This document shows positions 35,601 to 63,954 of a stretch of DNA of 64,000 bases, in pieces. The translations under genes were made by a program, and so were the position numbers. How positions within the stretch are numbered: position 1 is the first letter of the stretch; every line of letters starts with the position of its first letter. The stretch is from a virus, in the IMG/VR virus record IMGVR_UViG_3300045988_070370, positions 1 through 64,000 of that record; one strand, 5' to 3'. The notes beneath the pieces were generated by a model. It worked only from the letters and a program-made list of their open reading frames with translations. It was not told the DNA's origin and searched no databases.

Positions 35601-38600
35601 ATTGTACGATGAACGTTGCCATCAGCATCCTTGGTCTCCTGAATCCAGCCGTTGCCCAACTTGTCGGAGTACTGCCACTGAATGTTGGCACCCATCATCT
35701 TAGCCAGTCTCTCGAAAGCCTTGCGAGTTTTCTGCCCCACGATGTTGTCAACGACCTTCATATCATCCACCTTATTCTTCTCTACGTCGGCTGCACGCTC
35801 GGCAGTTGTCTGCTGCTTGCCATTCTCCTTAGCAGAGAAAGGAAGGTCAGATTCATCAAGTTGTTCACCCAAAGGCTTCTCATCCGTTGCATCCTCGGGA
35901 GCCTCAATAGCATTGCTACCCTCTCTTAGTGTGTCAGGGAACTTTGTCTGCTCATTTACAAAATCTCTAAACTCTTTAGCGGTAGCAGCATCATAGAACG
36001 TTGCACCTTCTGTGATTTCGCTATCTATATTAGAAGAATGATTGAGGTCACGTCCTGCATTGAACTCCTCTTGCAGTTTTCCGAGTTGCTCAACGACTTC
36101 CGCATTGTCTGGGAAATAAATCACTTGGTTTATATTCTTGCCCTCATCAGGAACAAGAGTACTAACACCAAAGCCATCTTTGCACATCAAGAACAAATCA
36201 GCGTAGCTATTTAACTTAGATGTAGGGTCTATCTCTAAGCCTTGCTTCTTTGCCCATTTTGCAAGTTCTATAATATTGTTATTAATAGGTTCTCCTTGTT
36301 TATCAATAGCTGGTAAATCTATATTCTCCTCAGCCTTTTTCTTTTCCTCTTCTGCTTTCTTCTCCAGTTCAGCCTTTTTCTTTTCTTCCTCCTCCTTAGC
36401 TTTCTGTTGCTCGTAATATGCAGCATTCTCAGCAGCAGTCCTTTCTTCTTCAATGAGTTTTTCTGCCTGAGCGATACGAATATTCTCAATAAAACTTCTT
36501 GCTTCCGAAGCCTTGAAACCGCTTGTGAGCACATCAATAAGAGCATTACGAATATCTTGTGTATCGAGAGATTCAAGGTTGGATGGACGATTATCCCACA
36601 GACTATGTACGAGTGCATCTATAGTCGTTCCTTTGCCATCAGCAGCGAGCAACTGGGTCTTGGCAAAGTCTTCTCTGCTCAATCCAGTCTCTTGCTTAAC
36701 ACCCTTGCTTGTTTCTGTTCCCTCATAGTTGAGAGAGTGAGCACCGAGGTTGCTAGCCACATACTCCTCAGCAGTAAGCGGAATGGTATCTGTCACATCA
36801 ATGCCTGTACCATCATACAGACGATGCAGCAGAGTTCCAACCGTCTCCTTATAGATTTGAGCAACAGCCTCTGCATCATCCTTCACCGCACTCTTCAAGC
36901 GAGCAAACTTTCTTCTTGCCTTCTCAATAAGATTCTTTCTGCCCTCAGCAGTATCTTCCACCTTGGCAAGTTGTCGCTCATTATAGGCATCACGGATAGC
37001 GATAGCAGAGTCATAAGCCGCCTGAGCATCAGCAATAGCCTTCTCCTTAGCATCCTTGGAAGCCTTCTGTTCTAAGAAAGTCTTACCCTTCACGGTCATG
37101 TTGTTAGCCTTGTCGAGTGCCTTCTTTGCATCAGACACATATCCAGATACGATACTATCTGCATCCTCACCAAACTGATTATCATATAGCTCAGCAGTCT
37201 GTGCGGCAGTCAGCTTCGAGAAGTCAGGATTGCCATCCTCCAGCATAGGTACGATGGTTCCATCTTCAAGGGTAATGGTAGGAGCAGCAGGAGTCTGTTC
37301 TGTTGCAGGAGTCTCAGTAGTCTCATCAGAAGGAGCAGTAGTCTCTGTATTCTCTGCTACCTCAGGAGTTGTTTCATCCTCTATTGTAGGAGATTCCACC
37401 TCTATCTCACCTCTATTCTCTCCACTATTATCCTCTATCATTGAGGAGGCAGCAAATGCTTGCTTATACTCATCGAGCGACATAGAAGAGATTGTAGCCA
37501 CATCTTCTTTGTTCACAGCATGAGGAACAATAGTACCATCACTCTTCAACTCAACTACCTTAGCCTTAGCACCAGTATCACGAATAAGGAACAACTTGGA
37601 GTCAGGGTATTTAGTGTTACCATCCTCATCAAGTACATCAACGAGCACCACGTTTCCATTATCATTAAGTATTTGATTGAAATCAAATGAAGGTTGAGTC
37701 TCTTCTGTCTCCTGAGTCTGTTGGTCTGCACGTTCCTTCTCCAACTGCTCACGCTGAGCCTTAGCAGCTTCCAGTCTCTTCTGGTCTTCCAAGTCTTTCA
37801 TCTGCTGCAAGTCTGCAAGCGAATAAGGATTCTCCACCACGTTACCATCTATAGAGACAGCAGCAGTACCATCACCATAATCAGCCAACACCTCATAGGT
37901 ATGTTCAATACCATCAGTATCAGTCACATTGAACTGAGAGCCAACCTCTACAGTTCCGTCAATGATGCCAGCAATCTCTTTGATAGCATTCTCTTTTGCA
38001 TCAGCTACCGCCTGAGCCTTCACATCATCAGCAGGAAGTTCTTCACCCAGTTCAGCAAACATCAACGCATCAGCATGTTCTACACTATTCGTTGTCGGGT
38101 CGTAGTAGAGAATCATATCATCACTATTGCTTACATCAATAGAACCATCTTCATGAGTAGCAATATTACCGCTGATAATATACACACCATAATCTTCCAA
38201 ACCGCCTGATGCTTTGATGGTAGCGTTACGAACGGAGCCACGACTTCGGTCTGTGTACATATCCACTTTCTGTGCCGCCTGATGAGCAGCTATATCAACC
38301 TTGTCTTGTGCATCATCAATCACACCTTGGTATCGGGCAGAAGACAACTGATAATCATAGATAGCTTGGTCAAGTTTATCATCCTGTCCTGTCAGGGATT
38401 CCAGTTCCTCATCACTCATGGCAGATAGCTGCTGCTCAGAGATGCCAAATGCTGCTGCAAGAGTCTTCATCTGGTCTTCCTGCTGAATCTGAATATCATG
38501 CTTGTCTGCATCATCTGCATTATGACCTTCCGTATAAGCATCATCAAGGTCGTTTGATAATGTTGGAGCAGTATCACCTTCTTCAACCTTATCTTTTGTC

Positions 38601-40747
38601 TTTGCATCTGATGCCTGATTGAATCCACGAAGTTTGCTAAGGAACATAGCATAATTGATAACTGCACCTTTTTGCTTAGCAGTCATGGAGTCTGAGCGAG
38701 TAGCATCCAAGACAGTCTTAGTCAAGTCTGCATTGGTTGACACATCAATTTTGCTTTTTATTTCGTCCCAATTATCATTAAACAACCATTGACCGAACTT
38801 GTCTGCTTTGTTGACCTGATGCTTAATCTTGAAATATTGAACTGCATTTATAGCGCCAACAGCAGTTCGAGGAGCCTGCATGAAACCAACAGAATAGAAC
38901 ATTCCAAGGCAAGTATCAATCTGCTTTTCTCTCGCATCAGGATTTGTGAAAACATTGAAGTCACTCCAGCTTCCGTCTCCATCACCCCATGCAGCATGAA
39001 GGGCAGTACCAAATTCCTCTTCGGAAATCTCAGCCATCACACCTTGTATTCCAGACTTGTTGGTTGCATTGCTCAACCATTTATAGTAAGCATTATTGCC
39101 TATCTTTTCAAAGAAGGAAGATACTTTTGAAAGACCCAACTTAGACAACAACTTAGACGCACCAGGCAGATACTCACCGAACATTTCCGAGAAGTTCTCT
39201 ATTGTAGCTGAGCCAAAGCCATCCTTGATAGCCTTACCAAGACTGACACCTTCATTGAACTTCAAATCGCCATTCTTGTCTTGGGTCACACCTCCATTCT
39301 CGTTGTTCATTCCAACATAACGTTCTATCACATTATTATATGTAGAACCAAGTTGGTTGGTAGCTGCCAATGCTGCACTACCAGTCATATCACCGAGCAT
39401 ACGACCAGTATTTTTAGTAAACCATTTGCCAAGAGCACCGAGAGCCATTTTCTCTCCAACCTTTTCTCCTGTCTTGGTGAAACCAGTGGTCATAACATTT
39501 CTCCAGCCGCTTAACGCAAAGTCTCCCATGAACTTTAAGGAGCGACCGCTCACATCTCCATACTGATAAGCCTTTGTGCCATACTGCTGCTGTTTAGCAG
39601 CTTCTCCTTGTTGCTGCTGAATAGCACCAAGCATAGCTTGTGCTGCATTTCCTGCATTGGAACCTTTCTTGATTGTTCCATCTTCCATGCCCTTCTTTAC
39701 TTGGAGCAAATTGTTTGATATAGCTGCATCCATAACACCCTGAGAATATAACTTCGGGTCAAGCATGGTATTAAACATCGCACCAAAATAATTGGAAACG
39801 TCATTCCACTTATCTTTCCACCAACCAGCATTTTCATTTCTCTGCTTTTGTTCCTTCAACTCCTGAAGCAGAGTTGTACGCAACATCTGATTGTAAGCCT
39901 TGGCGGTATTATAAGCACCATACTCTACATCAGACAAGCGGTTTGCCTCATTGCTTATAGCTGTATTAAATGAAGAAGGAGCAACTGCTCCACCAGATGC
40001 AACAAAAGGAGAACCCTGCAAGTGCATAGACTCATTCAATTCCTTAGAACGTCTGTCCTGATTCTCGTTAAGCCACTCTTGTCTTCTCTCCATTTGTCGC
40101 ATAGCAACATCTGTGTCGGACAAATCTGGGTCAGCCTTATCCAATTCAGAAGGAACAATGCCCATATCAACTGCATTGTTCCACTCTTCCCCATATTTAT
40201 CCAACTGGTTCTGATACTGGGAAGCATCATACTCGTTGTCGAACTCTACACCATCTGTTGTAGTATAGGTTCCAGTCTTGCCTGTTGTCGAATTGTAGTT
40301 GAACTCATTCTTCTGTACATTCTTATTCTGTAAAGGATTCTTGAAACCGATAGTCACCTTACCACCATTTGCATTAAACTTCTTTGCTCGCTCAACCGTC
40401 TTACGGATATTGCCAGATGCACGCTTAACTTGTCTAGCAGTATTCAGGACAGATTGTGTCACAGACAAGTAACGAGCACGGTCAGCAGCACTCATAGGTA
40501 CACTACCACCCTTCGCCCTTGATGATGTCCTACTACGAGGTACAAAGAGTGCAGAATAGAAACGCTCATAAGTAGATGGAACATCAAAGTTCTGAGCCTT
40601 CAAGTTCTCATAAATAGCGTGTCTGTTATCTGCACCGCTCTTTCCGTCTCTGGTCAGGGCACTTTCAAACTTATTGTAATCATCAGGCACATCATAGTTC
40701 TGTGCTTTCAGATTCTTGTATAAAGTGTATAATGGTCTTTCTGCCAT
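23693..40747 (-). CDS. giant polyvalent (multi-enzyme) virion cargo/ejection protein, 5,684 aa
   Basis: A single uninterrupted 17,055-nt ORF. It contains two HExxH modules, a complete C5-MTase motif set, a PPase-like module, three ART-like modules, acidic and coiled-coil linkers, and a C-terminal region with hydrophobic helices. This architecture matches the polyvalent proteins described for phages and conjugative elements (Iyer, Burroughs, Aravind and co-workers). Confidence 0.9.
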   Translation of the reverse strand: MAERPLYTLYKNLKAQNYDVPDDYNKFESALTRDGKSGADNRHAIYENLKAQNFDVPSTYERFYSALFVPRSRTSSRAKGGSVPMSAADRARYLSVTQSVLNTARQVKRASGNIRKTVERAKKFNANGGKVTIGFKNPLQNKNVQKNEFNYNSTTGKTGTYTTTDGVEFDNEYDASQYQNQLDKYGEEWNNAVDMGIVPSELDKADPDLSDTDVAMRQMERRQEWLNENQDRRSKELNESMHLQGSPFVASGGAVAPSSFNTAISNEANRLSDVEYGAYNTAKAYNQMLRTTLLQELKEQKQRNENAGWWKDKWNDVSNYFGAMFNTMLDPKLYSQGVMDAAISNNLLQVKKGMEDGTIKKGSNAGNAAQAMLGAIQQQQGEAAKQQQYGTKAYQYGDVSGRSLKFMGDFALSGWRNVMTTGFTKTGEKVGEKMALGALGKWFTKNTGRMLGDMTGSAALAATNQLGSTYNNVIERYVGMNNENGGVTQDKNGDLKFNEGVSLGKAIKDGFGSATIENFSEMFGEYLPGASKLLSKLGLSKVSSFFEKIGNNAYYKWLSNATNKSGIQGVMAEISEEEFGTALHAAWGDGDGSWSDFNVFTNPDAREKQIDTCLGMFYSVGFMQAPRTAVGAINAVQYFKIKHQVNKADKFGQWLFNDNWDEIKSKIDVSTNADLTKTVLDATRSDSMTAKQKGAVINYAMFLSKLRGFNQASDAKTKDKVEEGDTAPTLSNDLDDAYTEGHNADDADKHDIQIQQEDQMKTLAAAFGISEQQLSAMSDEELESLTGQDDKLDQAIYDYQLSSARYQGVIDDAQDKVDIAAHQAAQKVDMYTDRSRGSVRNATIKASGGLEDYGVYIISGNIATHEDGSIDVSNSDDMILYYDPTTNSVEHADALMFAELGEELPADDVKAQAVADAKENAIKEIAGIIDGTVEVGSQFNVTDTDGIEHTYEVLADYGDGTAAVSIDGNVVENPYSLADLQQMKDLEDQKRLEAAKAQREQLEKERADQQTQETEETQPSFDFNQILNDNGNVVLVDVLDEDGNTKYPDSKLFLIRDTGAKAKVVELKSDGTIVPHAVNKEDVATISSMSLDEYKQAFAASSMIEDNSGENRGEIEVESPTIEDETTPEVAENTETTAPSDETTETPATEQTPAAPTITLEDGTIVPMLEDGNPDFSKLTAAQTAELYDNQFGEDADSIVSGYVSDAKKALDKANNMTVKGKTFLEQKASKDAKEKAIADAQAAYDSAIAIRDAYNERQLAKVEDTAEGRKNLIEKARRKFARLKSAVKDDAEAVAQIYKETVGTLLHRLYDGTGIDVTDTIPLTAEEYVASNLGAHSLNYEGTETSKGVKQETGLSREDFAKTQLLAADGKGTTIDALVHSLWDNRPSNLESLDTQDIRNALIDVLTSGFKASEARSFIENIRIAQAEKLIEEERTAAENAAYYEQQKAKEEEEKKKAELEKKAEEEKKKAEENIDLPAIDKQGEPINNNIIELAKWAKKQGLEIDPTSKLNSYADLFLMCKDGFGVSTLVPDEGKNINQVIYFPDNAEVVEQLGKLQEEFNAGRDLNHSSNIDSEITEGATFYDAATAKEFRDFVNEQTKFPDTLREGSNAIEAPEDATDEKPLGEQLDESDLPFSAKENGKQQTTAERAADVEKNKVDDMKVVDNIVGQKTRKAFERLAKMMGANIQWQYSDKLGNGWIQETKDADGNVHRTIFITLDSSITEGAQFIFGHEMTHQIKSLNPAAYNELTQLVLDTYGSDAFDKAVDETMLRYSDAGFSGRARDYYAEEVVADAVGEMIRDLNLAHTLAMKMSHPLLAAIHEILQKIKLAFFGTEYSDVTKNIIRSIEQAYVKTAKGEVTNSETGEDVSFSLRQKPEPKKKGVGYKVFVLKDGKLYPPMVANPDGAATPVGVWLDADAAPIAGESKTGRPQVKQGGKGTQGGSGKLAYRPGWHLGVVPYAIQFNRKDAEGNKTLFPKNFVFAEVEYAADVDYQEEARQEGINPSGKYQHSLAGLKHLPTDGYYMYRTNPNPETDPWVITGAMKVNRILTRAEQADLVSKAGREPQQIQEGDIVTDDVVNSINQEIADAPKFSIKTYHGSQASFDKFDHSFMGSGEGAQAYGWGTYVSEVEGIAKAYAKQNAKKNAPSRLMYQDKPMTYKTPSIIYQVAFNMDKFNISAKEAISQMIDAGEKKLASVDDTPFAKMKAKQVQDELNVLKGLNPSDFKINEDYDTVAQNLADTKSGLDLLEDELKDAKSYVDLYQSRLDEAKGELSKAKESGTGLGVDMYESDVMYYSEQVEKYKQNVKTKESDIKDVKTKIDALQKKLDSIGKPRNLYSVDIPDDTGDNYIGWDEPITPKMLEAKRRVMEEDGYTMYDSDGNYDYFEKTENGKYQYWQLWNRQKGNGLYSELSKVLHSDKLASLALNKQGIVGVKVIADRTTGGNKEGKMNYVIFDENNAQITNHTKFSLRLKSAIEETETNPSDAQKESGNYKKGHIKFGGYDYTIENPKGSTRSGKDANGKEWKVTMHDTYGYIRGKFGKDGDHLDMFINDKADLDNWDGDVFVVDQVNPDGSFDEHKVMYGYDSMDDAEKAYLANYSKGWKGLGNITGVSKDEFDKWLDTSKRKLKPFKDYTKVKFSLKDNQGNPLNQDGTLKLDKIKSVDELTDEDFLHPTRNVELPSLPKKIADAIGTEGKPVVIKKNIFERNYMRHKDVTPELSKVIFKSALYNPDLYGQNQKKTRPYNWVLINTKDEKGNNRTVLLEVNPNKDNVEIVHWHFVNDKNLGLIKKQAIREGDQVLILPSEQSEEVGGLSNLTDDLSAAKIDNSSETAKENGEKFSLKDEKTLAGVHNITEEKLRKALKLGGFANPSLAVIDTNKSGHDNFGEISFIAPSALVDKRTGKTAGTWITDAYTQRYPSVERQMSEKGSQKFEDWVDSLEYPSAAKAEIKRQTKDVMEDNGVPAWELMYLKEKGIDIKAYDSRIDYRWKEIINDHPTAEDILSSMQNDPELNEKVTSLAKHAIIHPTWEKVSLEVRRKMYKETGVKASPINPQVRKQTKEIFERDYKSTLLNKDGSPRKKDVKKVVEDIVKEHNDTKKYDFYLSKVKASNYVNKNGLYDDYIRWQENKLDEFGTKNRIFRGYTKDGSRKYVPETLENVSKAMREEADGQTNGSEYTSFGSFIAKLASRVDSTDEMRANKDKLSSNEDKEAFYEKWSEVYYDLAKFLYNDVFYGEQRLHDIVLQSDPKKYAKKEYGITLTPTFMKKLDALKNAVQTELKSAYFETKYNRPLRLNEFAAAVVPDNLGEDVRKGIEDAGLPMYDYDPNKEGDRSRAFNEAINSSDNIRFSLKAEKEKIVADAKSNGTYMTAPNGEKTKLDAEQWATVRTANFKNWFGDWENDPENASKVVDENGEPMVMYHYTDESFTIFGKDKEVGKNTFGNATNASYAATTTIGHWFTSNKKQPEYMGKPMACFLNIVEPFDGYTLEGLADYLNNYISDEDFNSYEEDYENVAPIIEAGNNFREEQIRDGYDGVVIDDEEFGGTSYVAFNANQIKSAENNNGDFSADNNDIRFSLAGERGAAAADKAEERTARMDFLSVARKMEEEKKDAKAIKMATGWERGADGKWRYEMPDAKIKDTMDVGGGQIVKRYEEDMLWNGGKLSKVIDAPELFKAYPQLKDVRIETDAIMNDMPSNGEYNAKTNTITIHADELKYMNSILNHEIQHAIQSIEGFDRGGSPRLVRGEIKKRLAEVTKQIRQLRAEGKEDEAKAIVEKNRGLYNAYQANDDYNSYKSLAGEVEARNVSARINMTPEERRKTLAESTEDVARKDQIFLGVGDVSFSLRDMADGKESGAADMAEDLKSLNTPDEVDDAIKTAIDDMPSGWQMANRKMIHIAQALGENRKAEIAGEEPKFSLKDGTLIKAGTYFSGGGLVEEGLKGIIDPVVAVEYDEKISGVYRNNFGQHIVTADVRDVDPKELVKQIDGEVEYFHASPVCKNYSQAKSNHAELELDKETAASTAEFINAIKPKVVTIENVKGYKDSEAMKTITDALDANGYTWDADVYNAADYGGYTNRERLIVRAVRDGKLPDKPKKMAHKSGWYEAVADIIPTLTEKKNGVAPWMDVRLKADGIDWRNIDKPLYVMGSAYADGKIPHAFADELLPTLRTKSGDVIVMPDGKVYRAMGRVLARVSGVSDDYKMPFSENLSHTIIGNGIPTQLTEHVIAPLLTGSDPKFSIRTYHGTGASFDKFDFSHMGEGEGSQAFGWGGYVTNSKDIAEDYTRRAKIRKDNGGFEFVTDMSANNKDMVRQYIYKYKDVNKGLDAMRKDLPSALEMFPDDDDLKELSNILAKKNEEIAVPDNIAYLYDVDIPDDNGDYLDWDAPLTDKQKNTIIKELRRLKIDFDDFKKRGFSFDGSFGGNAYDFLMYALRRTKKWKDVDASRAVSKFLSSIGFTGIKYKAGNIFGGAKEGDYNYVIFDENNANIVGNTRFSLRYDQFEHDLNQWKKDNNLPKDAKRPSIPQRNAGESAVDFLRRVDDYRKQMALWKTAPTYEQHLLSDDTALGEFNRELQRGSVLKRIAFQDSMLAIRKAQEAIMKEVGVDRLNMAEDAYTAENRSHGKGKNEFEEYNNEFLQPLRKAYHQMKKVLGDSYDNVRIYMMAKHGLERDAQMAFKKSLEADYEDVAQRSAAYRAYKGDMNRMGNDSGFELGYIDFTTWRQRDNALRVKYSPSYMNYRYDKMGIAYDYSGLSALFDGSDFEEAAHKLIKDIESKYITETHNLWDATNAATKKILRDGYKAGMMSKDTYQYVRDMYSHYIPLRGWDGTTADQVWDYIGGGKGAFNQTLKTAHGRTSIADDPIAYIENMAESGILLNNKNWVKQHLMLLAQNHPTSLLTLSKAWYVKSTDANGNEEWIPATPQITSQMNSNQVKTAIDAFEKKMEQMAQTGDATQKRDGLNIAYPQTHSEEREHEVRVMKDGEEYVIYVNGDPQLAQAMNNTRAHRVREIQSGKLDRAAAWLGRKMAAAYTSLSPLFIPSNYFRDLTMTLASTAIREDGRYNYMLRKNLATSWNLGFMLRDYQNGKLREKVNNGNATPKEQMFYDFMMNGGETGFVSSLDVEDLKKKFKNDLKDLDRWKANPVKVGHTIMDGIEFLNRAIEDSNRFAVYMTSIQYGRSIDEAVNDAKDVTLNFNRKGTGEYGWQMIRNLYLFINPAVQSLQTLGALVKHHPFKFTAVTASWLASGVLVPIVNAALMSMLGGDDDKDKYWQFTKWDRRNNLIMWVPFTHEFVKIPLAQEFRAFYGLGDMIASKMMGGELAEESWSQYGEDLLGQVVDMLPLDPTGYDGNIAVSLMPNAIRPVFELAFNVDFTGKPLFKDTEYNKYDPNFTKAYVGTPDWLVRASKMVNSIGNDYPDVQQNSIDAFGDPRYNLNNPAVVDHVLSSYLGGAYTMGSQVLGVLTKSLNDPKEIKVADIPLFSKFVSNPDDRPVTKKQGDEFWDMKENHDRAANTLSKLKKQAKVDGDYSMLERFYGSEEYKQYKQDDVKVKKYEEDKKKERAEESGEEYRPHKLNAEDIYKAHATPKDDFEDLKLKQLYTKLNGFKTSYDLLVDTAPSQSDGYYNTNKAAIDAIDEISLDKQEISELKKGFLDDGKDAYNAEDMKQIRELRKKIISVLEKANKVVVANQKANAKKK
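23696..27274 (-). other. giant protein aa 4492-5684: C-terminal helical region with hydrophobic (membrane-insertion?) helices
   Basis: Contains DSNRFAVYM...AKDVTLNFNRKG and the hydrophobic stretch HHPFKFTAVTASWLASGVLVPIVNAALMSML (about nt 24985-25090). Ends in a Lys/Glu-rich coiled coil. Confidence 0.4.
27275..28048 (-). other. giant protein aa 4234-4491: ART-like module copy 3
   Basis: KFSIRTYHGTGASFDKFDFSHMGEGEGSQAFGWGGY ... YDVDIPDDNGDYLDWDAP ... DYNYVIFDENNANIVGNTRFSLR is collinear with copy 1. Confidence 0.35.
28058..28999 (-). other. giant protein aa 3917-4230: embedded DNA (cytosine-5) methyltransferase domain
   Basis: Motif I is YFSGGGL (nt 28955-28969). Motif IV variant is ASPVCKNYS (Cys3995). 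Motif VI is TIENVKGY (nt 28643-28651). Motif VIII variant is YTNRERL. Motif X is GNGIP (nt 28103-28117). Confidence 0.8.
29219..30022 (-). other. giant protein aa 3576-3843: zincin-like HExxH module 2
   Basis: GWERGADGKWRYE...AYPQLKDV...SILNHEIQHAIQSIEGF (HEIQH at nt 29576-29590, aa 3720-3724) ... SLAGEVEARNVSAR. This is a signature common in polyvalent proteins. Confidence 0.5.
30023..30712 (-). other. giant protein aa 3346-3575: ART-like module copy 2
   Basis: NFKNWFGDWEND...VVDENGEPMVMYHYTDESFTIFG ... DGYDGVVID ... TSYVAFNANQIKSAENNNGDFS...DIRFSL. The pattern matches what I recall of the ART-PolyVal family (WFGDS.VVDE.G.P.VVYHGT ... QIKSA.N.G.F). Confidence 0.4.
30713..32221 (-). other. 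giant protein aa 2843-3345: conserved-looking module of unknown function (LAGVHNITEEKLRKALKLGGFANPSLAVID...)
   Basis: About 500 aa between two KFSLK/RFSLK boundaries. No catalytic motif recognised. Confidence 0.35.
32222..32821 (-). other. giant protein aa 2643-2842: possible PBECR-type (Barnase/EndoU/RelE-fold) nuclease module
   Basis: The pattern VVIKKNIFERNYMRHKDVTPE...RTVLLEVN...NVEIVHWHF resembles phage PBECR domains. Assignment is from memory only. Confidence 0.25.
32822..33334 (-). other. giant protein aa 2472-2642: inorganic-pyrophosphatase-like module
   Basis: IENPKGSTRSGKDANGKEW...YGYIRGKFGKDGDHLDMFI...DEHKVMYGY...AEKAYLANYSK parallels the family I PPase signature (EIP.G...KYE.D...G ... 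YG(F/Y)I..T...DGDP.DVLV). Confidence 0.45.
33335..34471 (-). other. giant protein aa 2093-2471: ART-like module copy 1
   Basis: Begins KFSIKTYHGSQASFDKFD and ends MNYVIFDENNAQITNHTKFSLR. This is a paralog of aa 4234-4491. The HG[ST]...F..F start and YV.F end recall PARP/ART-PolyVal-type ADP-ribosyltransferase folds, an assignment made from motif memory only. Confidence 0.35.
34472..35122 (-). other. giant protein aa 1876-2092: module of unknown function (GYKVF..DGKLYPP ... AYRPGWH)
   Basis: Delimited by FSLR (aa 1872) and FSIK (aa 2093). No enzymatic motif recognised. Confidence 0.4.
35135..35839 (-). other. giant protein aa 1637-1871: zincin-like HExxH module 1
   Basis: FIFGHEMTHQIK (HEMTH at nt 35534-35548, aa 1734-1738), bounded by the FSAK and FSLR boundary motifs. 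Confidence 0.5.
40544..40732 (-). other. giant protein aa 6-68: tandem peptide repeat
   Basis: LYKNLKAQNYDVPDDYNKFESAL and IYENLKAQNFDVPSTYERFYSAL are two copies of a roughly 23-aa unit separated by about 14 aa. Confidence 0.7.
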
Positions 40748-43560: not shown

Positions 43561-44265
43561 TTAATGTCTTTTCGATTTCTCGATGTTATATTGGTCGCAA
43601 ATGTCGCAGTATGCGCCATAAGCCAAGCTATCAACCATTTCATTGTACTTGTCACCATTGTGACCTTTCACCCAGTGGAAACGGACTCCTGCCAAATGAG
43701 CAGAACATTTCTTGTATAACTCGTAGAGGTCAGGATTCTTCTTTGGCGGAGTACTCTTCCCCAACACAAGTATGCAGTACTGACTATCCGTATAAATATC
43801 AAGATAAGCACCATCAGGACAAGACTTAGCTGCACTAATGATAGCAAGCAACTCCATACGGTTGTTGGTTGTCTGCAATCTGCCGTGATTCTTCATCTTG
43901 ACAATATCGCCATCCTTCAACACGATGTAAGCCGAACCTCCAGCCTTATACTTAGAGTTATTATCACAACTTCCATCCGTATAGGCAACATAGTTCATGC
44001 CATTATCTGGAAAAGGCTCTACTGGGTCAAAATCATCCGACTTTTCTGCCATTTTTTCTCTGATAGTCTTAGAAAATTTCCCTTTAGCGTTGAACACTCC
44101 ATAATTGGCATCCGTGAGAATCATCCAATTTACAGGTTCTTCTCCATTTGCCTTCTTCCATTTTCTATCATCAAGATAATCATAAAGACTTTTGATGAAT
44201 TTATCAGTTCCATAGTTCTTAGATACACAATATCTTTTGAACTTTTCATAAGTTGGTTTATCCAT
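43561..44265 (-). CDS. ribonuclease HI with about-90-aa N-terminal extension
   Basis: The DEDD signature appears in order: AYTDGSC, NNRMELLAI, IYTDSQY, and WVKGHNGDKYNEMVDSLA. Confidence 0.85.
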   Translation of the reverse strand: MDKPTYEKFKRYCVSKNYGTDKFIKSLYDYLDDRKWKKANGEEPVNWMILTDANYGVFNAKGKFSKTIREKMAEKSDDFDPVEPFPDNGMNYVAYTDGSCDNNSKYKAGGSAYIVLKDGDIVKMKNHGRLQTTNNRMELLAIISAAKSCPDGAYLDIYTDSQYCILVLGKSTPPKKNPDLYELYKKCSAHLAGVRFHWVKGHNGDKYNEMVDSLAYGAYCDICDQYNIEKSKRH

Positions 44266-47500: not shown

Positions 47501-47926
47501 CTATCGTTGTTTCAGTACTATATATGTAACTACAGAACCGACAATAGCCCCAATGAAAGCGTCTGCAACCATCCACATAATCTTGTAGATTACACCATGT
47601 TGTTCCTTAAATGAAGACTCCTTCTTTAGAGCCTTCACTTCCTCCTCATGCTCCTTTTTTAACATACTGCCATTCCAAAGGATTGGTATCTGGCTCCTGC
47701 CCTGCTTGGTAACACTATACACCACCCTGGATTCTTGGTTACTATAGGCATACCCTCGGTTGAGGTATTCGCTCTTCACCAATAGTTCTGCAACACCCTC
47801 TTTCCAAGCACCATCAGGAGATACGTTATCATAAATGATACTCCATATCTCCTGCTCATACTCAGACTTGTCTCGGATGCTATCCAGCAGCACGTAAAGC
47901 TTCTGTTCATTTGTTATCTCAGCCAT
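47501..47926 (-). CDS. TM-anchored small protein, last gene of repressor operon
   Basis: Soluble N-domain (KLYVLLDSIRDKSEYE...) plus a C-terminal TM helix IMWMVADAFIGAIVGSVVTYIVL. Its start overlaps the upstream stop (TAATG). Confidence 0.6.
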   Translation of the reverse strand: MAEITNEQKLYVLLDSIRDKSEYEQEIWSIIYDNVSPDGAWKEGVAELLVKSEYLNRGYAYSNQESRVVYSVTKQGRSQIPILWNGSMLKKEHEEEVKALKKESSFKEQHGVIYKIMWMVADAFIGAIVGSVVTYIVLKQR

Positions 47927-49116
47927 TATTTTATCCCCAAACTTTGTATTTGATTTTTTAAGATTTTTGATTTTGTTATATAATCAATGTTATTTAAACG
48001 GCAATGATTTATGGTTACATCATTGCCAGACATTGCGCCAAAAACCAAACTACAAATATACCCATTATAATCACCTCGTTTCTGAGAAATAGTTGCCATC
48101 ATAAGAAAACAACTTCCTATTGTATCGTTAACTCGACCTTTTCCATCAAGTACATCTATTTTGGATAAGCCATATCTATCTTGTAATACAGACAAACTTT
48201 TCTCGAAACAAGAATTTGCTAACGTGTACGCATTTTTGTCGTAATATGCAAAGCCTTGCATATAATATGCATCTCCCAAAAGTTCATTCAACAAATTAGA
48301 GGAAAGAGATAAGTATTGTCTCTTGTGCTCAATACAATCTATCAGTTTTTCCGAATATAATATCGTGTTATCTCTATCCTTTAAACCGTCATAGGCTATC
48401 ATTCGATAATAATATGAATAGAAATAAGAATCGTCTGACAAATATATATAAGGGTCATCAATCCATTCGTTACATACATCAATACACTCTCTATCTTTAT
48501 GTGTACTAAGATAACATCTTGCTAAGTATCTGTAGCCTTTATCCGTTAAAAGGTTTTTATATTTAAAATCTTCCATTTGATGAATAATCATACTATAACT
48601 TCCAGAAGAAAAATTAGATTCTAAACCTTCATATACTTTATCTATATACTCAGGGCTATAATTTGCCGTTGATTTATTTATAATAAGCTTGTTCCCATCT
48701 ATACCAACCTTACCAATTTTCTGAATTGCAGACAAACCTAACAATAAAGGTGCTCTTTGACTATCCAATATAACAGCCTCGACATCATCAATTTTAATAC
48801 CACCTATCTCTAATCTTTTTATTTTAACAACAATATGGTCTATACTTTCACCAGACGCAATAGTAGAAGACCCCTCGCCAATAACGTCTGTTTCACGCAA
48901 CAATCCATTACGGAACATATAAGACGCAACCTTAGAAGACAGACTAACATCGGATGCTCCTGTGTCAAATATCATACTAACTTTATAGCCATTAACTGTA
49001 CACGGAACCGTAAAAACACCACCATCTTTTGTCATTTCTATAACTGTTTGTGAAAAAACACATAAGCTAATTAACATAAAAGACAAAACAAACATTACTC
49101 TTTTCATACCTACCAC
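47926..49116 (-). CDS. secreted/lipoprotein retropepsin-like aspartic protease fused to TPR-like repeats (396 aa)
   Basis: Signal peptide MKRVMFVLSFMLISLCVFSQ. Clan AA signature VNGYKVSMIFDTGASDVSLS ... IGGIKIDDVEAVILD...APLLLGLSAI. The C-terminal about 230 aa are Tyr/Leu-rich and helical-repeat-like. Confidence 0.65.
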   Translation of the reverse strand: MVGMKRVMFVLSFMLISLCVFSQTVIEMTKDGGVFTVPCTVNGYKVSMIFDTGASDVSLSSKVASYMFRNGLLRETDVIGEGSSTIASGESIDHIVVKIKRLEIGGIKIDDVEAVILDSQRAPLLLGLSAIQKIGKVGIDGNKLIINKSTANYSPEYIDKVYEGLESNFSSGSYSMIIHQMEDFKYKNLLTDKGYRYLARCYLSTHKDRECIDVCNEWIDDPYIYLSDDSYFYSYYYRMIAYDGLKDRDNTILYSEKLIDCIEHKRQYLSLSSNLLNELLGDAYYMQGFAYYDKNAYTLANSCFEKSLSVLQDRYGLSKIDVLDGKGRVNDTIGSCFLMMATISQKRGDYNGYICSLVFGAMSGNDVTINHCRLNNIDYITKSKILKNQIQSLGIK

Positions 49117-51325: not shown

Positions 51326-51626
51326 ACCATCAAATTCAACTGATATGATAGACCCACAGATTAAGGAGCAGTTAGACCGCATCGAGCAGTATTCGATGAT
51401 AGCTGCAAAGAATGTGCTCAACATTCAGGAAGCTGCAATCATCCTTGGCATGACGGTAGAAGGTGTGAGGTATAATGTTAGAAACAACAAACTTCCCTGC
51501 TACAAACCGAACGTCAACCGACTCTACTTCAAGAAGAGTGAGCTGGAAGACTGGATGATGCAGAACCGCTCGAAGAGTATGGCAGAGATAGAATCAGAGG
51601 CAGCAGCCTATTGTACAACCCATTAA
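51312..51626 (+). CDS. excisionase-like / MerR-type HTH protein
   Basis: LNIQEAAIILGMTVEGVRYNVRNNKLPCYK...LYFKKSELEDWM fits the excisionase-family HTH pattern. An alternative start, MIDPQ, is at 51345. Confidence 0.55.
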   Translation: MPVSKPSNSTDMIDPQIKEQLDRIEQYSMIAAKNVLNIQEAAIILGMTVEGVRYNVRNNKLPCYKPNVNRLYFKKSELEDWMMQNRSKSMAEIESEAAAYCTTH

Positions 51627-51871
51627 AAATATAGAATATGTTCTCAACAGTTATGTTATTATTGTCAATTATCACTTTTTGCGTGATGACAAACGAGATT
51701 TACCGCTCATTCAAGGAATGGGGCAAATAAGAGACATGGTGAGTGAACCTCAAATAAAGTTCATATAGATAAAAATTTAGTTAGCGTTATTGATATTGTT
51801 TAAGTGGAGGTTTTTGAAGTTCACTACTTCCACTCACCACAAGCCAGAAATGTTTTATGTTGATGCGTAAG

Positions 51872-51949
51872 ACGCAAGTAGTTCAGTTGGTAGAACAGAA
51901 GGTTCCCCATCCTTCGATGTCGTGGGTTCGAGTCCCACCTTGCGTCCCA
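51872..51949 (+). tRNA. tRNA with 8-nt anticodon loop UUCCCCAU (isotype undetermined; CCC/Gly-like or CCCC quadruplet); CCA encoded
   Basis: Hand-folded cloverleaf. Acceptor ACGCAAG/CTTGCGT. D-arm GTTC-AGTTGGTA-GAAC. Anticodon stem GAAGG/CCTTC around TTCCCCAT (51903-51910). Variable region GATGTC. T-arm GTGGG-TTCGAGT-CCCAC. Discriminator C, then CCA. Confidence 0.8.
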
Positions 51950-52525
51950 ATAGCCTGATTCCAAGGCTTCATATCGGATAGGATAAACCTTCCTGAAGAG
52001 GTACTCGCAGCCAAGAGCAGCGTATGCAACCACAACATACGATTAGACGAGGAAGTGGCAAGACTATTACCTGCACCGCAACAGGTGGAATTGGGAACGT
52101 CTTGGAGTTCACTTGTGAAGATGCAGACCTGATGCCGTGACCATTATTATATAAGGTAGCATTAAGAGGTAGGAGCGCACAACTACAATTCGGTTCTAAT
52201 GCAGCCAGCATGAAACAGAATAGATGAAATATTGTAACTACATATTTTAATTTTGCTCTTTAATCATTTATAATGTATGCGGAAATAGTGCTGGGAGTCC
52301 TAAGCCTCCATGAATGCAGAAGGGAACTTGAAGACACATGTCCTTAGGCGAAAGCGTGGCTCGGCTTGTGTCTTTGGGCGCACGGATTGGATCAAAGGCC
52401 TCGGACGTGCGCCCTTTTCAATAGAAGTTTTTTCATTAGATTCCATACATTTTGCGGTAGCGACCGCTCAGGTGATAAAGAAAACACTCGCCCCACCATT
52501 CGTGAGAATCGTGGGGTTTTATTTT
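51950..52525 (+). ncRNA. candidate structured non-coding RNA(s), unclassified
   Basis: About 580 nt with no convincing ORF, and visibly GC-richer than its flanks. Hairpins: 52021-52041, 52069-52086, 52331-52374 (8 bp), 52376-52414 (9-bp GGGCGCACG/CGTGCGCCC, then TTTT) and 52454-52467. The region ends in a strong intrinsic terminator. Orientation is inferred from the terminators. Confidence 0.4.
52491..52525 (+). terminator. intrinsic terminator (GNRA-capped hairpin plus U-tract)
   Basis: CCCCACCATTC-GTGA-GAATCGTGGGG (one C.C mismatch) followed by TTTTATTTT. Confidence 0.75.
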
Positions 52526-52554
52526 GAAAGTCAAACAATTAAATATTATAGCTT

Positions 52555-52893
52555 ATGAACAACTCAGCAAGTGGAAACTATCCACCAGGCGCAGCCAACG
52601 ACCCTTCTGCACCTTACAATCAGCCAGAATATCCTGAGTATCAGGACTACGATGTTACGGCATCATTCGTACTTGACAAGTCGTTTACAGTTACCTCTTC
52701 TTCTGATGATGAGGAAGGCATCAAGCAAGACCTCATTGAAGACTACATGACACCTTTAGACCTCATCAAAGAGTTGAAAAAAAGGCTGCAAGGCGAGTTG
52801 AAATTAGACCCGACAAACAAAGTAACCAAGAGTCTTATCAAGGAGTGTGATGGATGGACGTGTGACTGTGACATCTGTGTTGACAACATTTAA
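52555..52893 (+). CDS. acidic hypothetical protein (112 aa)
   Basis: First ORF after the terminator. Asp/Glu-rich, with a Cys-rich C-terminus CDGWTCDCDIC. Confidence 0.5.
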   Translation: MNNSASGNYPPGAANDPSAPYNQPEYPEYQDYDVTASFVLDKSFTVTSSSDDEEGIKQDLIEDYMTPLDLIKELKKRLQGELKLDPTNKVTKSLIKECDGWTCDCDICVDNI

Positions 52894-52904
52894 ATAATAT
52901 AGGT

Positions 52905-53570
52905 ATGGGCAACTTAGACTTATACAACAAACTCAAAGTCGTACCAGCGGAAGCAATAAAACCAATCCAGAATGGGCGACTTAAAGGCAAGAGTGACATC
53001 AATCCGATGTGGCGCATCAAGACGATAACAGAACATTTTGGTGTTTGCGGAATTGGTTGGAAGTATGTTATTACAAAGCAATGGACTGAAACGTATGGCA
53101 CGGAGACTAAAGCGTACTGCAATATAGACCTTTTCGTCAAGGTTGATGGTCAATGGTCAGATGCTATTCAGGGAACTGGAGGTTCATCTGAGGTTACGAT
53201 GGAACGTAATGGTTCATACGTATCTGACGAATGCTACAAAATGGCACTCACAGACGCACTCTCTGTAGCAATGAAGGCACTTGGTGTTGGAGCAGACATT
53301 TACTTTGAGAAAGGAAAGCAAATGGACTATTCATCAAAGTACGATATGCAAGAGGATTTAGCAAAAACTCAGCAGCAAGAAGCCAAGACGCAGCAGCAGA
53401 CCGCTACACAGTATCACCCTAACGAACTGAATGAAGGATTGTGTTATCTGAGCAGATGTGTCAACAAGGACAATCTGATATGGGTAGTTCAGACATACAA
53501 GCCGCTTACCGCCAACCCTCAGTTTATGCAAGCAGTATCGGCTAAGAAGAAACAATTAGGAATACAATAA
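52905..53570 (+). CDS. Rad52/Sak-like single-strand annealing protein
   Basis: NGRLKGKSDINPMWRIKTITEHFGVCGIGW and KMALTDALSVAMKALGVGADIYF resemble the Rad52-family signatures (FG..G.GW ... K.A.TDA.KRA...LG.G..LY). Confidence 0.6.
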   Translation: MGNLDLYNKLKVVPAEAIKPIQNGRLKGKSDINPMWRIKTITEHFGVCGIGWKYVITKQWTETYGTETKAYCNIDLFVKVDGQWSDAIQGTGGSSEVTMERNGSYVSDECYKMALTDALSVAMKALGVGADIYFEKGKQMDYSSKYDMQEDLAKTQQQEAKTQQQTATQYHPNELNEGLCYLSRCVNKDNLIWVVQTYKPLTANPQFMQAVSAKKKQLGIQ

Positions 53571-62913: not shown

Positions 62914-63954
62914 ATGAATGAAAAAGTAATCACCTCGTACAAGGCTTTCAACAAGAATATGCAATGCCGTAATTTCCAGTACGAAGTTGGAAAAGAGTAT
63001 GAAATGGACGGAGAAATTAAGTGTTGTAACCGAGGTTTCCACGCTTGCAAGTCTCCAATGGAAGTGTGGGACCACTACGATATGCTTAACTCTCGCTATG
63101 CAGAGGTAGAACAGTCTGGTAAAATTGATGAAGAAGGAGATTCGACAAAGGTTTGTTCTTCGCATATCAAGATTAAGGCTGAGTTGAAGCTGGCAGACAT
63201 CATTAAGGTTGGTGTCGAGTGGCTGAAAGATATTACCTCACCATCAAAGTTTAAGACAGATGGTGCGTTGTATGATAACGGAGACAGAAACAAACAGATT
63301 GGTTCAAGCGGTGACTATGCTCAGATTGGTTCAAGCGGTTACTCTGCTAAGATTGGTTCAAGCGGTGACTCTGCTCAGATTGGTTCAAGCGGTGACTCTG
63401 CTCAGATTGGTTCAAGCGGTTACTCTGCTAAGATTGGTTCAAGCGGTGACTATGCTAAGATTGGTTCAAGCGGTGACTATGCTCAGATTGGTTCAAGCGG
63501 TGACTCTGCTCAGAATGGTTCAAGCGGTGACTCTGCTCAGATTGGTTCAAGCGGTGACAATGCTCAGATTGGTTCAAGCGGTGACTCTGCTCAGATTGGT
63601 TCAAGCGGTGACTCTGCTCAGATTGGTTCAAGCGGTGACTCTGCTCAGATTGGTTCAAGCGGTTACTCTGCTAAGATTGGTTCAAGCGGTGACTATGCTA
63701 AGATTGGTTCAAGCGGTGACTATGCTAAGATTGATAGCACTGGAGAAGATTCTGTTATTATGTGTGCTGGAAACAAATCCAAAGTCAAAGCAAAGGTAGG
63801 CTCATGGATAACGCTGGCAGAGTGGAAATGGAGCGATGAGAAAAATCATAATGTTCCAGTATGCGTTAAGACAGAGTACGTTGACGGAGAAAACATCAAG
63901 GCTGATACTTGGTATCAACTTAAAAACGGAAAATTTGTTGAAGTTCAGAAGTAA
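62914..63954 (+). CDS. nonapeptide-repeat (IGSSGD[SY]A[QK]) beta-helix-like protein
   Basis: The N-domain is YKAFNKNMQCRNFQYEVGKEYEM...CNRGFHAC. It is followed by 16 consecutive 9-aa repeats and a C-terminal domain. Confidence 0.7.
   Translation: MNEKVITSYKAFNKNMQCRNFQYEVGKEYEMDGEIKCCNRGFHACKSPMEVWDHYDMLNSRYAEVEQSGKIDEEGDSTKVCSSHIKIKAELKLADIIKVGVEWLKDITSPSKFKTDGALYDNGDRNKQIGSSGDYAQIGSSGYSAKIGSSGDSAQIGSSGDSAQIGSSGYSAKIGSSGDYAKIGSSGDYAQIGSSGDSAQNGSSGDSAQIGSSGDNAQIGSSGDSAQIGSSGDSAQIGSSGDSAQIGSSGYSAKIGSSGDYAKIGSSGDYAKIDSTGEDSVIMCAGNKSKVKAKVGSWITLAEWKWSDEKNHNVPVCVKTEYVDGENIKADTWYQLKNGKFVEVQK
63298..63729 (+). repeat. 16 x 27-bp in-frame tandem repeat (ATTGGTTCAAGCGGTGACTCTGCTCAG consensus)
   Basis: Directly visible head-to-tail units differ only at 2-4 positions (GAC/TAC, TCT/TAT/AAT, CAG/AAG). 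A degenerate 17th unit follows. Confidence 0.95.

Follow-up and report, generated by a model that had tools for sequence, protein, structure and literature searches.

A modular RNA locus in a temperate phage

The window analysed here comprises 64,000 nucleotides (nt) of viral DNA, positions 1 to 64,000 of IMG/VR record IMGVR_UViG_3300045988_070370, and the element under study is an RNA locus on its + strand which consists, in this order, of a tRNA-like element, a conserved structured RNA of approximately 245 nt (here termed RNA-A) and a predicted self-cleaving ribozyme of the type-P1 twister class, followed by a set of hairpins (Table 1). The gene order around the locus is repressor (- strand), cro-like, Ant, HTH_17/Xis-like, RNA locus, small protein, SSAP, exonuclease, SSB and NinB, with a tyrosine integrase gene 6 kb upstream of the RNA locus. 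The phage is temperate, and the RNA cassette is located in its early region, between the Ant/Xis-like regulators and the recombination genes. An earlier note on this DNA had described 51950-52525 as a region poor in open reading frames (ORFs), rich in stems and beside a tRNA gene, and had proposed it as one large structured RNA. The scarcity of ORFs and the presence of a tRNA-type neighbour were both borne out, as the approximately 600 nt between this gene and the ATG at 52555 hold no credible ORF and as 51627-52554 constitutes the longest gap in the window that is free of ORFs of 90 amino acids (aa) or more. An 82-aa ORF at 52310-52558, whose authenticity had been doubted, is indeed spurious: it is not conserved among relatives, in which ATA takes the place of its ATG, lengths of 6 to 107 aa occur and the sequence is wholly diverged. 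The region had also been considered richer in GC than its surroundings, which is true of 51900-52200 (0.47-0.52) but not of 52100-52300 (0.37), the gene upstream being at 0.45-0.485.

Relatives of the locus were collected using the neighbouring SSAP/ERF-like protein (52905-53567) as a query, which yielded 80 IMG/VR loci (individual loci are referred to by L numbers). Approximately 37 of these gave a blastn match over 51873-52327 at 77-79% identity, and in these relatives the similarity stops at the 3' end of the twister (52327) and restarts at 52446-52546. Additionally, when a 20-nt island from the conserved block was used as an exact search pattern, at least 119 further viral contig stretches were identified, and RNA-A is present in every one of those listed. 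The cassette was found in at least 150 IMG/VR viral-contig loci, as well as in Prevotella/Segatella genomes. The proposal of a conserved structured RNA beside the tRNA-like gene is supported by covariation, as described below; that of a single ornate RNA of approximately 580 nt is not, since conservation breaks into modules.

Table 1. Positions of the RNA modules, helices and flanking elements in the window (percentages of pairing in the twister refer to 37 distinct sequences)
Feature	Positions	Strand	Remarks
Conserved upstream motif	51806-51840	+	window reads GGAGGTTTTTGAAGTTCACTACTTCCACTCACCAC; seen in aligned upstream flanks of ~20 relatives
tRNA-like element	51872-51949	+	Rfam tRNA, 52.2 bits; ARAGORN 'tRNA-???', anticodon cccc
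RNA-A	51950-52197	+	~245 nt, conserved structure; predicted 3' end U52197 with 2',3'-cyclic phosphate
H2	51957-65 with 52101-09	+	RNA-A helix
H4	51987-91 with 51998-52002	+	RNA-A helix
H5	52004-07 with 52048-51	+	RNA-A helix; three pair combinations, among the best supported
H6	52010-11 with 52017-18	+	RNA-A helix
H7	52021-26 with 52036-41	+	RNA-A helix; best-covarying, up to five pair types per position
H8	52055-57 with 52068-70	+	RNA-A helix
H9	52074-77 with 52084-87	+	RNA-A helix
H10	52114-17 with 52178-81	+	RNA-A helix
H11	52127-30 with 52167-70	+	RNA-A helix; among the best supported
H12	52131-35 with 52159-63	+	RNA-A helix
H13	52142-46 with 52152-56	+	RNA-A helix; among the best supported
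Type-P1 twister ribozyme (predicted)	52192-52328	+	Rfam RF03160, clan CL00120; covariation
Twister P1	52192-96 with 52324-28	+	100% paired
Twister P2	52200-03 with 52315-18	+	100% paired
Twister P3	52206-11 with 52288-93	+	95.5% paired
Twister P3 insert	52212-52287	+	variable, AT-rich, ~75 nt
Twister P4	52294-96 with 52307-09	+	100% paired
Twister L4 loop	52297-52306	+	GUCCUAAGCC
Twister T1	52299-301 with 52321-23	+	100% paired, all 3 pairs changed on both sides
Twister T2	G52204, C52205 with G52304, C52305	+	invariant, 100% paired
Hairpin c1	52331-52374	+	AAGACACA/TGTGTCTT; directly 3' of twister P1; fold z -2.65
Hairpin c2	52376-52418	+	GGGCGCACG/CGTGCGCCC stem (52376-52414); z -3.2
AT-rich stretch with Bacteroidetes -7-like box	52440-52469	+	window reads TACATTTT
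Hairpin GCGGU-AGCG-ACCGC	52454-67	+	z -2.6
GUGA-capped terminator-like hairpin	52489-52525	+	stem CCCCAC.AUUC / GAAU.GUGGGG, then UUUUAUUUU

The mean column identity of RNA-A is 91% among 35 relatives, compared with approximately 73% for their flanking SSAP protein. RNAalifold predicted 56 pairs for this RNA, 11 of which display compensatory changes, while curation on 74 sequences (71 distinct) led to a structure of 12 helices whose 52 pairs are formed in 98.0% of cells, with 16 pairs changed on both sides among the distinct sequences. None of 500 shuffles reached the main measures, and pairing fell to 31-44% when the partners were slid. CGTATG/CATACG, one of the stems read by eye in the earlier note, proved to be the best-covarying helix, H7; ACCTG/CAGGT (52069-52086), in contrast, is specific to the clade of the window, the conserved helix at this location being CACC/GGTG (H9). 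A covariation scan suggests that H9 may be extended by pairing of 52071-73 with 52091-93. The evidence for structure lies in this covariation and not in folding energy, since the minimum free energy of the whole region has a z-score of -1.65 on the + strand (-0.23 on the - strand) and that of the 248-nt core one of 0.01; as a description of the entire region, 'stem-rich' was therefore not upheld. Long single-stranded stretches, UCGGAUAGGAUAAACCUUCCU (51974-51994) among them, are invariant, as is usual in RNAs that have a tertiary structure or bind partners.

RNA-A was regarded as a separate module because the linkers on either side are short and variable (3-5 nt towards the tRNA-like element, and of changing sequence and length towards the twister) and because one copy, L204, occurs without a twister. 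A protein-coding function was rejected, given that ORFs across RNA-A vary between relatives in strand, frame and presence, and codon periodicity is absent from its variable columns (43/46/46). Two candidate helices were likewise discarded, namely a terminal helix between the 5' GCC of RNA-A and a twister P1 strand, which is lost in the L007 clade, and a CUUCC/GGAAG alternative to H4, which suffers uncompensated changes in L111, L121, L002 and L145. Complementarity of RNA-A to possible antisense targets in the window was at chance level (13-14 nt at most, and to a terminator only), T-box-like and RNase-P-like readings of RNA-A, judged by eye, yielded nothing convincing, and no Rfam family matched it at E-values up to 10. 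RNA-A is an unclassified conserved phage RNA and constitutes a new family.

The twister and the tRNA-like element

At the gathering threshold, Rfam returned the tRNA only from the whole 64-kb window. When matches with E-values up to 10 were admitted on both strands of 51600-52700, no GOLLD, ROOL, hepatitis delta virus (HDV), hammerhead, group I/II intron, RNase P, tmRNA, riboswitch or HEARO family was detected, so that the earlier suggestion of GOLLD or ROOL was not sustained; the one notable additional match was to twister-P1, a match to YrlA (20 bits, in the T arm) being not significant. The twister-P1 match in the window attains no more than 28.3 bits (E 0.0011), its register being displaced to 52267-52327. 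The window copy is both under-scored and mis-registered by Rfam because of the variable insert of approximately 75 nt in P3. L007, whose P3 is naturally short, aligns over the full length of RF03160 (positions 1-68) in the register proposed here with 58.2 bits (E 1.8e-12), while L207, a member of the L162/L207 clade from which P3 is absent, scores 45.2 bits (E 9.6e-9).

An alignment of 37 distinct sequences, with the P3 insert masked, revealed that the helices and both pseudoknots are paired in 98.8% of cells (30-45% with slid partners) and that seven pairs, including all three of T1, carry compensatory changes. T1 occurs as CCU/AGG, UCU/AGA or CAC/GUG, and as CCC/GGG in the L162 clade. The 5' half of the element reads GUUC-UAA-UGCA-GCC-AGCA(C/U) (52193-52211) and the 3' half GUGCUG-GGA-GUCCUAAGCC-UCC-AUGAA-UGCA-GAAGG-GAAC (52288-52327), both being invariant, and UAA, GCC and GUCCNAAGCC of the core are preserved. 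The consensus core of the class (UAA, GCC, GUCCCAAGCC, UAAA and GAGGG) is matched throughout, bar variants in which one C-to-U change in L4 has its compensation in GAGGG (G to A), or in which some copies carry UGAA or CAAA for UAAA. P3 is absent, consists of 6 bp or carries an insert of 40-79 nt, as expected of an optional stem. Cleavage is predicted between U52197 and A52198, in the internal loop between P1 and P2, and the alignment points to a new variant of the type-P1 class, self-cleavage itself being a prediction. This ribozyme had been missed in the earlier note, where CCTAAG/CTTAGG was read as a pseudoknot. CCUAAG is part of the L4 loop of the twister, and the supposed pseudoknot is unsupported because in the L111 clade L4 is changed to CACAAG together with its T1 partner while CUUAGG remains unchanged.

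Only the last 20 or so nucleotides of the P3 insert (52267-52290 in the window; also L008, L009, L034, L124, L143 and L111) can be aligned across clades, and their consensus is RAURURUGCGR-N4-5-AGUGCUGG. It was to this end of the insert that Rfam aligned the window copy, because this end resembles the authentic 5' half of the ribozyme (UAAUGUAUGCGG versus UAAUGCAGCC). The conserved end could represent a decoy strand for an inactive alternative fold, or the remnant of a duplication.

The tRNA-like element possesses an acceptor stem (51872-78 with 51939-45), the discriminator C51946 and an encoded CCA (51947-49), and Rfam assigns 50-54 bits to the window copy and most relatives. Its 'anticodon' loop in the window, UUCCCCAU, has 8 nt as opposed to the canonical 7, and the anticodon loop is the most variable spot of the locus. 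Among 40 relatives ARAGORN called Met(CAT) in eight and Ser(GGA) in one (L204), made no call in seven, and assigned to the other 24 twelve distinct 4-nt 'anticodons', which sit in 8-nt loops; the anticodon arm is deleted altogether in L030, L110, L144 and L151. Pairing of the acceptor, D and T stems is, on the other hand, kept via compensatory changes, and the nucleotides of the D-loop/T-loop elbow are present. Most copies encode C-CCA and some CCAA, CCUA or CUUA, and CCA could also be attached post-transcriptionally. The tRNA goes unrecognised by both Rfam and ARAGORN in the L162 clade, yet the acceptor and T arm persist there, and the acceptor/T-arm/elbow portion is retained in all of the approximately 155 carriers. 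The element probably derives from tRNA-Met(CAU), and it is probably a structural or processing handle that is kept for its shape and not a decoder.

Flanking elements, gene neighbourhood and distribution

Upstream of the tRNA-like element, by approximately 30-70 nt, lies a motif with the consensus GGTTTTTTGGAGTTTGCTACTCCCAGTCTCCAC (L008, L009, L018, L034 and others), the hairpin of which is GAAG/CUUC in the window and GGAG/CUCC in most relatives, a compensatory difference; its fold has a z-score of -0.99. The motif could be a promoter/operator or an RNA leader element of the cassette. Of 110 relatives, 24 possess an exact Bacteroidetes -7 box (TAnnTTTG) roughly 45 nt before the tRNA-like element, and none was seen at this place in the window itself. 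A simple scan of the locus for sigma-70 promoters and terminators was uninformative and did not call hairpin c2 as a terminator.

The two stems that the earlier note had placed directly 3' of what is now recognised as the twister (hairpins c1 and c2) fold better than shuffled sequences, but they are replaced or absent in other clades. At the position of c1 there are at least three unrelated hairpin types across clades and none in some, and a weak RAGATH-21 match to c1 (16 bits, E 9.3) is not significant. Hairpin c2 is GC-rich, reads GGGCGCACG...CGUGCGCCC followed by UUUU and looks like an intrinsic terminator closing the non-coding RNA (ncRNA) unit; it occurs in some clades, most carrying another GC-rich hairpin with a U run, and is absent from the L162 clade. 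Inner parts of c1 and c2 are conserved between clades (UGUCCUUAGGCGAAAGCGUGGCUCGGC and GAUGG.U.AAAG.CCUCGGA, compared with L111, L166, L110 and L028), while the outer stems show compensatory changes or the modules have been shuffled, behaviour that resembles small mobile RNA modules rather than plain terminators.

Further downstream, the block 52446-52546 is conserved at approximately 80% identity. The AT-rich stretch at 52440-52469, where 23 of 110 relatives have an exact TAnnTTTG, may provide the genes downstream with a promoter and leader. The GCGGT-AGCG-ACCGC hairpin and the GTGA-capped terminator, both listed in the earlier note, are real and conserved in most relatives; the latter has a fold z-score of -4.57, none of 200 shuffles folding as well, and is conserved across clades, that of L162 included. 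It either terminates the ncRNA unit or acts as an attenuator before the gene starting at 52555.

Beyond the IMG/VR collection, a genome scan recovered the element from the complete chromosome of Segatella copri HDE04, from Candidatus Segatella albertsiae and from two Prevotella assemblies, along with a further copy (L204) on a short contig binned as Oscillospiraceae; two of its seven matches, L202 and L203, were rejected as due to chance. A distant-mode search of INPHARED (GenBank phages) returned no relative of the region and only unrelated tRNA similarity, phages with more distant SSAP proteins (L038-L058) lacked an analogous cassette, and of the pattern scans for divergent members one was empty while the others retrieved the L162 clade alone. 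The HTH_17 protein is encoded upstream in 152 of 155 carriers, which reflects synteny of the lineage and not a partnership, because Ant and the cro-like gene track the cassette too.

A search of the proteins of the window for a possible partner enzyme (reverse transcriptase, RNA ligase, RtcB, CCA-adding enzyme or Ro60) found none and turned up ordinary early genes and an RNase H-domain protein of 233 aa (43561-44262, - strand), which has the sole RNA-directed enzyme domain among the window proteins scanned. Between the HTH_17 gene and the cassette, a 30-aa hydrophobic ORF, MFSTVMLLLSIITFCVMTNEIYRSFKEWGK (51638-51730, + strand), gives tblastn matches in 30 of 155 carriers and may be a real small membrane peptide in the clade of the window. 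Elsewhere in the window, a single ORF of 5,684 aa occupies 23693-40747 (- strand) on the side of the virion genes, which is unusually large for a phage of approximately 60 kb; the gene at 47926-49113 (- strand), adjoining that of the repressor, encodes a protein in which an aspartyl protease domain of retroviral (gag-like) type is accompanied by a weak, sub-threshold TPR match (19.7 bits, cut-off 27), an odd neighbour for a phage immunity region; and DUF7666 is combined with collagen-like triple-helix repeats in one protein at 62914-63951 (+ strand).

Proposed role of the cassette and relation to known systems

On balance, we judge it probable, though by no means secure, that the interval constitutes an RNA-maturation cassette which delivers RNA-A with defined and protected ends. 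The tRNA-like element, RNA-A and the twister would be transcribed together from the + strand. The tRNA-like element would keep the acceptor/T-arm/elbow shape that is read by RNase P and tRNA 3'-end nucleases, the constraint on its anticodon having gone, and since this shape is kept we propose that host tRNA enzymes cut on either side of it and thereby generate a 5' end for RNA-A at about 51950; another possibility is that the tRNA-like element remains attached as a protective 5' cap. Self-cleavage of the twister between U52197 and A52198 would generate an exact 3' end with a 2',3'-cyclic phosphate and free RNA-A from downstream sequence, the variable hairpins and terminators lying beyond the predicted cut. 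RNA-A, thus freed and protected at its ends, would be the functional product, most likely a trans-acting folded RNA or ribonucleoprotein (RNP) active in early infection or upon induction.

Several observations weigh against this proposal. No twister of this group reaches the Rfam gathering score of 67.2 bits, and it is in this score alone that the sequence falls short of the class. Many of the RNA-A pairs that changed on both sides follow a few deep splits between clades, including one between two main clades, and the covariation counts for RNA-A therefore overstate the number of independent events; moreover, RNA-A folds no more stably than its shuffles. An encoded CCA, as present in most copies, acts against RNase Z as an anti-determinant in many bacteria, which leaves the 3' cut of the tRNA-like handle uncertain. 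The divergent copy L204 (CAVKAH010000154.1, 131-460, - strand) keeps the tRNA-like element and RNA-A without a twister, so that the ribozyme would not be strictly required; its homology ends ...AAGUUC, one base short of the position of the predicted cut, and its 4.7-kb contig in an Oscillospiraceae bin may be a chimeric assembly or mark a recombination breakpoint. Finally, the top half of the tRNA-like element is never lost, which would equally fit a part of the functional RNA.

This last observation is among the grounds for the main rival explanation, which we consider possible but rather unlikely, namely that the tRNA-like element and RNA-A form one RNA of approximately 325 nt, in which a tRNA mimic engages a host factor that binds tRNAs (an anticodon nuclease or other tRNA-targeting defence, the CCA-adding enzyme, EF-Tu or the ribosome being candidates), RNA-A acts as effector or scaffold and the twister merely trims the 3' end. 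The persistence of the acceptor, T arm and elbow in all carriers even where the remainder of the cloverleaf has decayed, the covariation of the tRNA-like stems and the short linker to RNA-A are all consistent with a joint RNA, and the rapid change of the anticodon loop could signify an arms race instead of neutrality. However, the anticodon arm can be deleted, which argues against a decoy directed at the anticodon, CCA is not always kept, and covariation between the tRNA-like element and RNA-A amounts to no more than a correlation at the level of clades.

A cis-regulatory function, in which the cut by the twister would tune the flanking mRNAs (ant, xis-like or recombination genes) and RNA-A would serve as the aptamer of an allosteric ribozyme, is less probable again. 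The location of the cassette inside a co-directional early operon is compatible with such control, as are the adjacency of RNA-A to the ribozyme, its many invariant unpaired nucleotides, which recall RNAs that bind ligands or proteins, and the lack of a terminator between the twister and the next block in the L162 clade. This explanation is disfavoured by the lack of any helix common to RNA-A and the twister and by their separability, the linker between them varying in sequence and length and RNA-A persisting without a twister in L204; furthermore, most clades have a terminator-like hairpin and an apparent fresh promoter before the downstream genes, and no riboswitch family was matched.

It is very improbable that the locus encodes a working decoder tRNA (quadruplet/+1 frameshift or suppressor), with the remainder forming a 3' trailer that the twister helps to remove in the manner of theta ribozymes. 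The 8-nt loops with U33, for example UU-CCCC-AU, resemble those of classical frameshift-suppressor tRNAs. Ribozymes beside tRNAs are, in addition, known in gut phages (PMC10879173). Against these resemblances stand more than 12 loop sequences among close relatives, the arm deletions and the unrecognisable tRNA of the L162 clade, next to an RNA-A that is nearly invariant; the predicted cut lies 248 nt past the tRNA end, and a mere trailer would not be expected to be 91% conserved with covarying helices. The remaining explanation, that 51950-52525 forms one large ornate RNA of the GOLLD/ROOL kind, draws on the presence of a conserved, structured sequence beside a tRNA-like gene in a phage, but it merits next to no credence, as it is already contradicted by the missing family match, by modular conservation in which 52327-52446 is swapped or absent in other clades and by a twister in the middle of the region.

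Little is known of the biological roles of twisters, or of those of most small self-cleaving ribozymes from bacteria and phages, and the cassette offers a rare natural context in which the fixed position of a twister right after a conserved RNA turns the question of its role into a testable hypothesis of 3'-end maturation. RNA-A itself is more conserved in sequence than the proteins that surround it, in a widespread temperate-phage lineage of Prevotella/Segatella, which are dominant human-gut bacteria, and it is encoded between lysis-lysogeny regulators and recombination genes. A more far-reaching idea, of which we are doubtful, is that RNA-A belongs to a new class of large functional RNA (a ribozyme, or the core of an RNP or RNA-only assembly), carried by phages abundant in the human gut, that needs exact ends from a tRNA-shaped module and a twister; such an RNA might act on tRNAs or on tRNA-directed host defence. 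On this idea a twister of bacteria or phages would also gain its first clear biological role, in maturing the 3' end of an ncRNA. For ribozyme searches in general, the locus demonstrates that a large insert in an optional stem can defeat both score and register in Rfam, and similar ribozymes have probably been missed elsewhere.

The cassette can be compared with several known systems. GOLLD and ROOL are borne by phages and prophages, often beside tRNA genes, and have a complex conserved structure and an unknown function (PMC5737381). The cassette resembles them in being directly downstream of a tRNA-like gene in a temperate phage, a likeness of context only that does not define a family, whereas RNA-A is approximately 245 nt long as opposed to approximately 580-800 nt, matches them in neither sequence nor structure, belongs to phages of another host phylum and is flanked by a ribozyme. 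Nearest to the cassette among published concepts, and a precedent for it, are the theta ribozymes, minimal HDV-like ribozymes that occur at tRNA 3' ends in Bacteroidota gut phages (Kienbeck et al. 2024, PMC10879173). They share with the present case a small self-cleaving ribozyme by a phage tRNA-type gene, presumed here to be co-transcribed with it, hosts among the Bacteroidota infected by Caudoviricetes and a proposed part in defining the 3' end of an RNA (PMC10879173). They differ in class (HDV-like as opposed to twister), in cutting within 5 nt of the tRNA end and not, as predicted here, 248 nt past it, and in their cargo, which here would be a structured ncRNA and not a tRNA, the tRNA of the cassette looking non-decoding. 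No HDV-type family was detected at E-values up to 10, and inspection of 51950-52010 by eye revealed no P1/P3/P1.1 arrangement of the theta/HDV fold.

Handles shaped like tRNAs are known from MALAT1-mascRNA, the tRNA-miRNA units of gammaherpesviruses and engineered tRNA scaffolds, where RNase P or RNase Z sets the end of a neighbouring ncRNA, and in engineered ribozyme-flanked RNA cassettes ribozymes set the other end of the RNA. Those tRNA-like processing handles are eukaryotic, viral or synthetic, whereas the present candidate is natural and belongs to a bacterial phage. Full-text literature searches did not find RNA-A or the combination of a tRNA-like element with a twister described, and we know of no natural bacterial-phage cassette that unites such a handle with a twister.

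A further comparison is with the twister family RF03160 itself, with which the ribozyme shares the order of P1, the U^A site, P2, GCC, an optional P3, P4 with the GUCCNAAGCC loop, P2', a GAGGG-like loop and P1', in addition to the T1 and T2 pseudoknots and the core nucleotides. It departs from that family in its scores (58, 45 and 28 bits against the threshold of 67.2), in a T1 that is CCU/AGG and not CCC/GGG in most copies and in a P3 that usually carries an AT-rich insert of 40-79 nt with a conserved end of approximately 20 nt. It is further set apart by its setting, as the copies described here are located in temperate phages of Prevotella/Segatella, directly after a conserved ncRNA.

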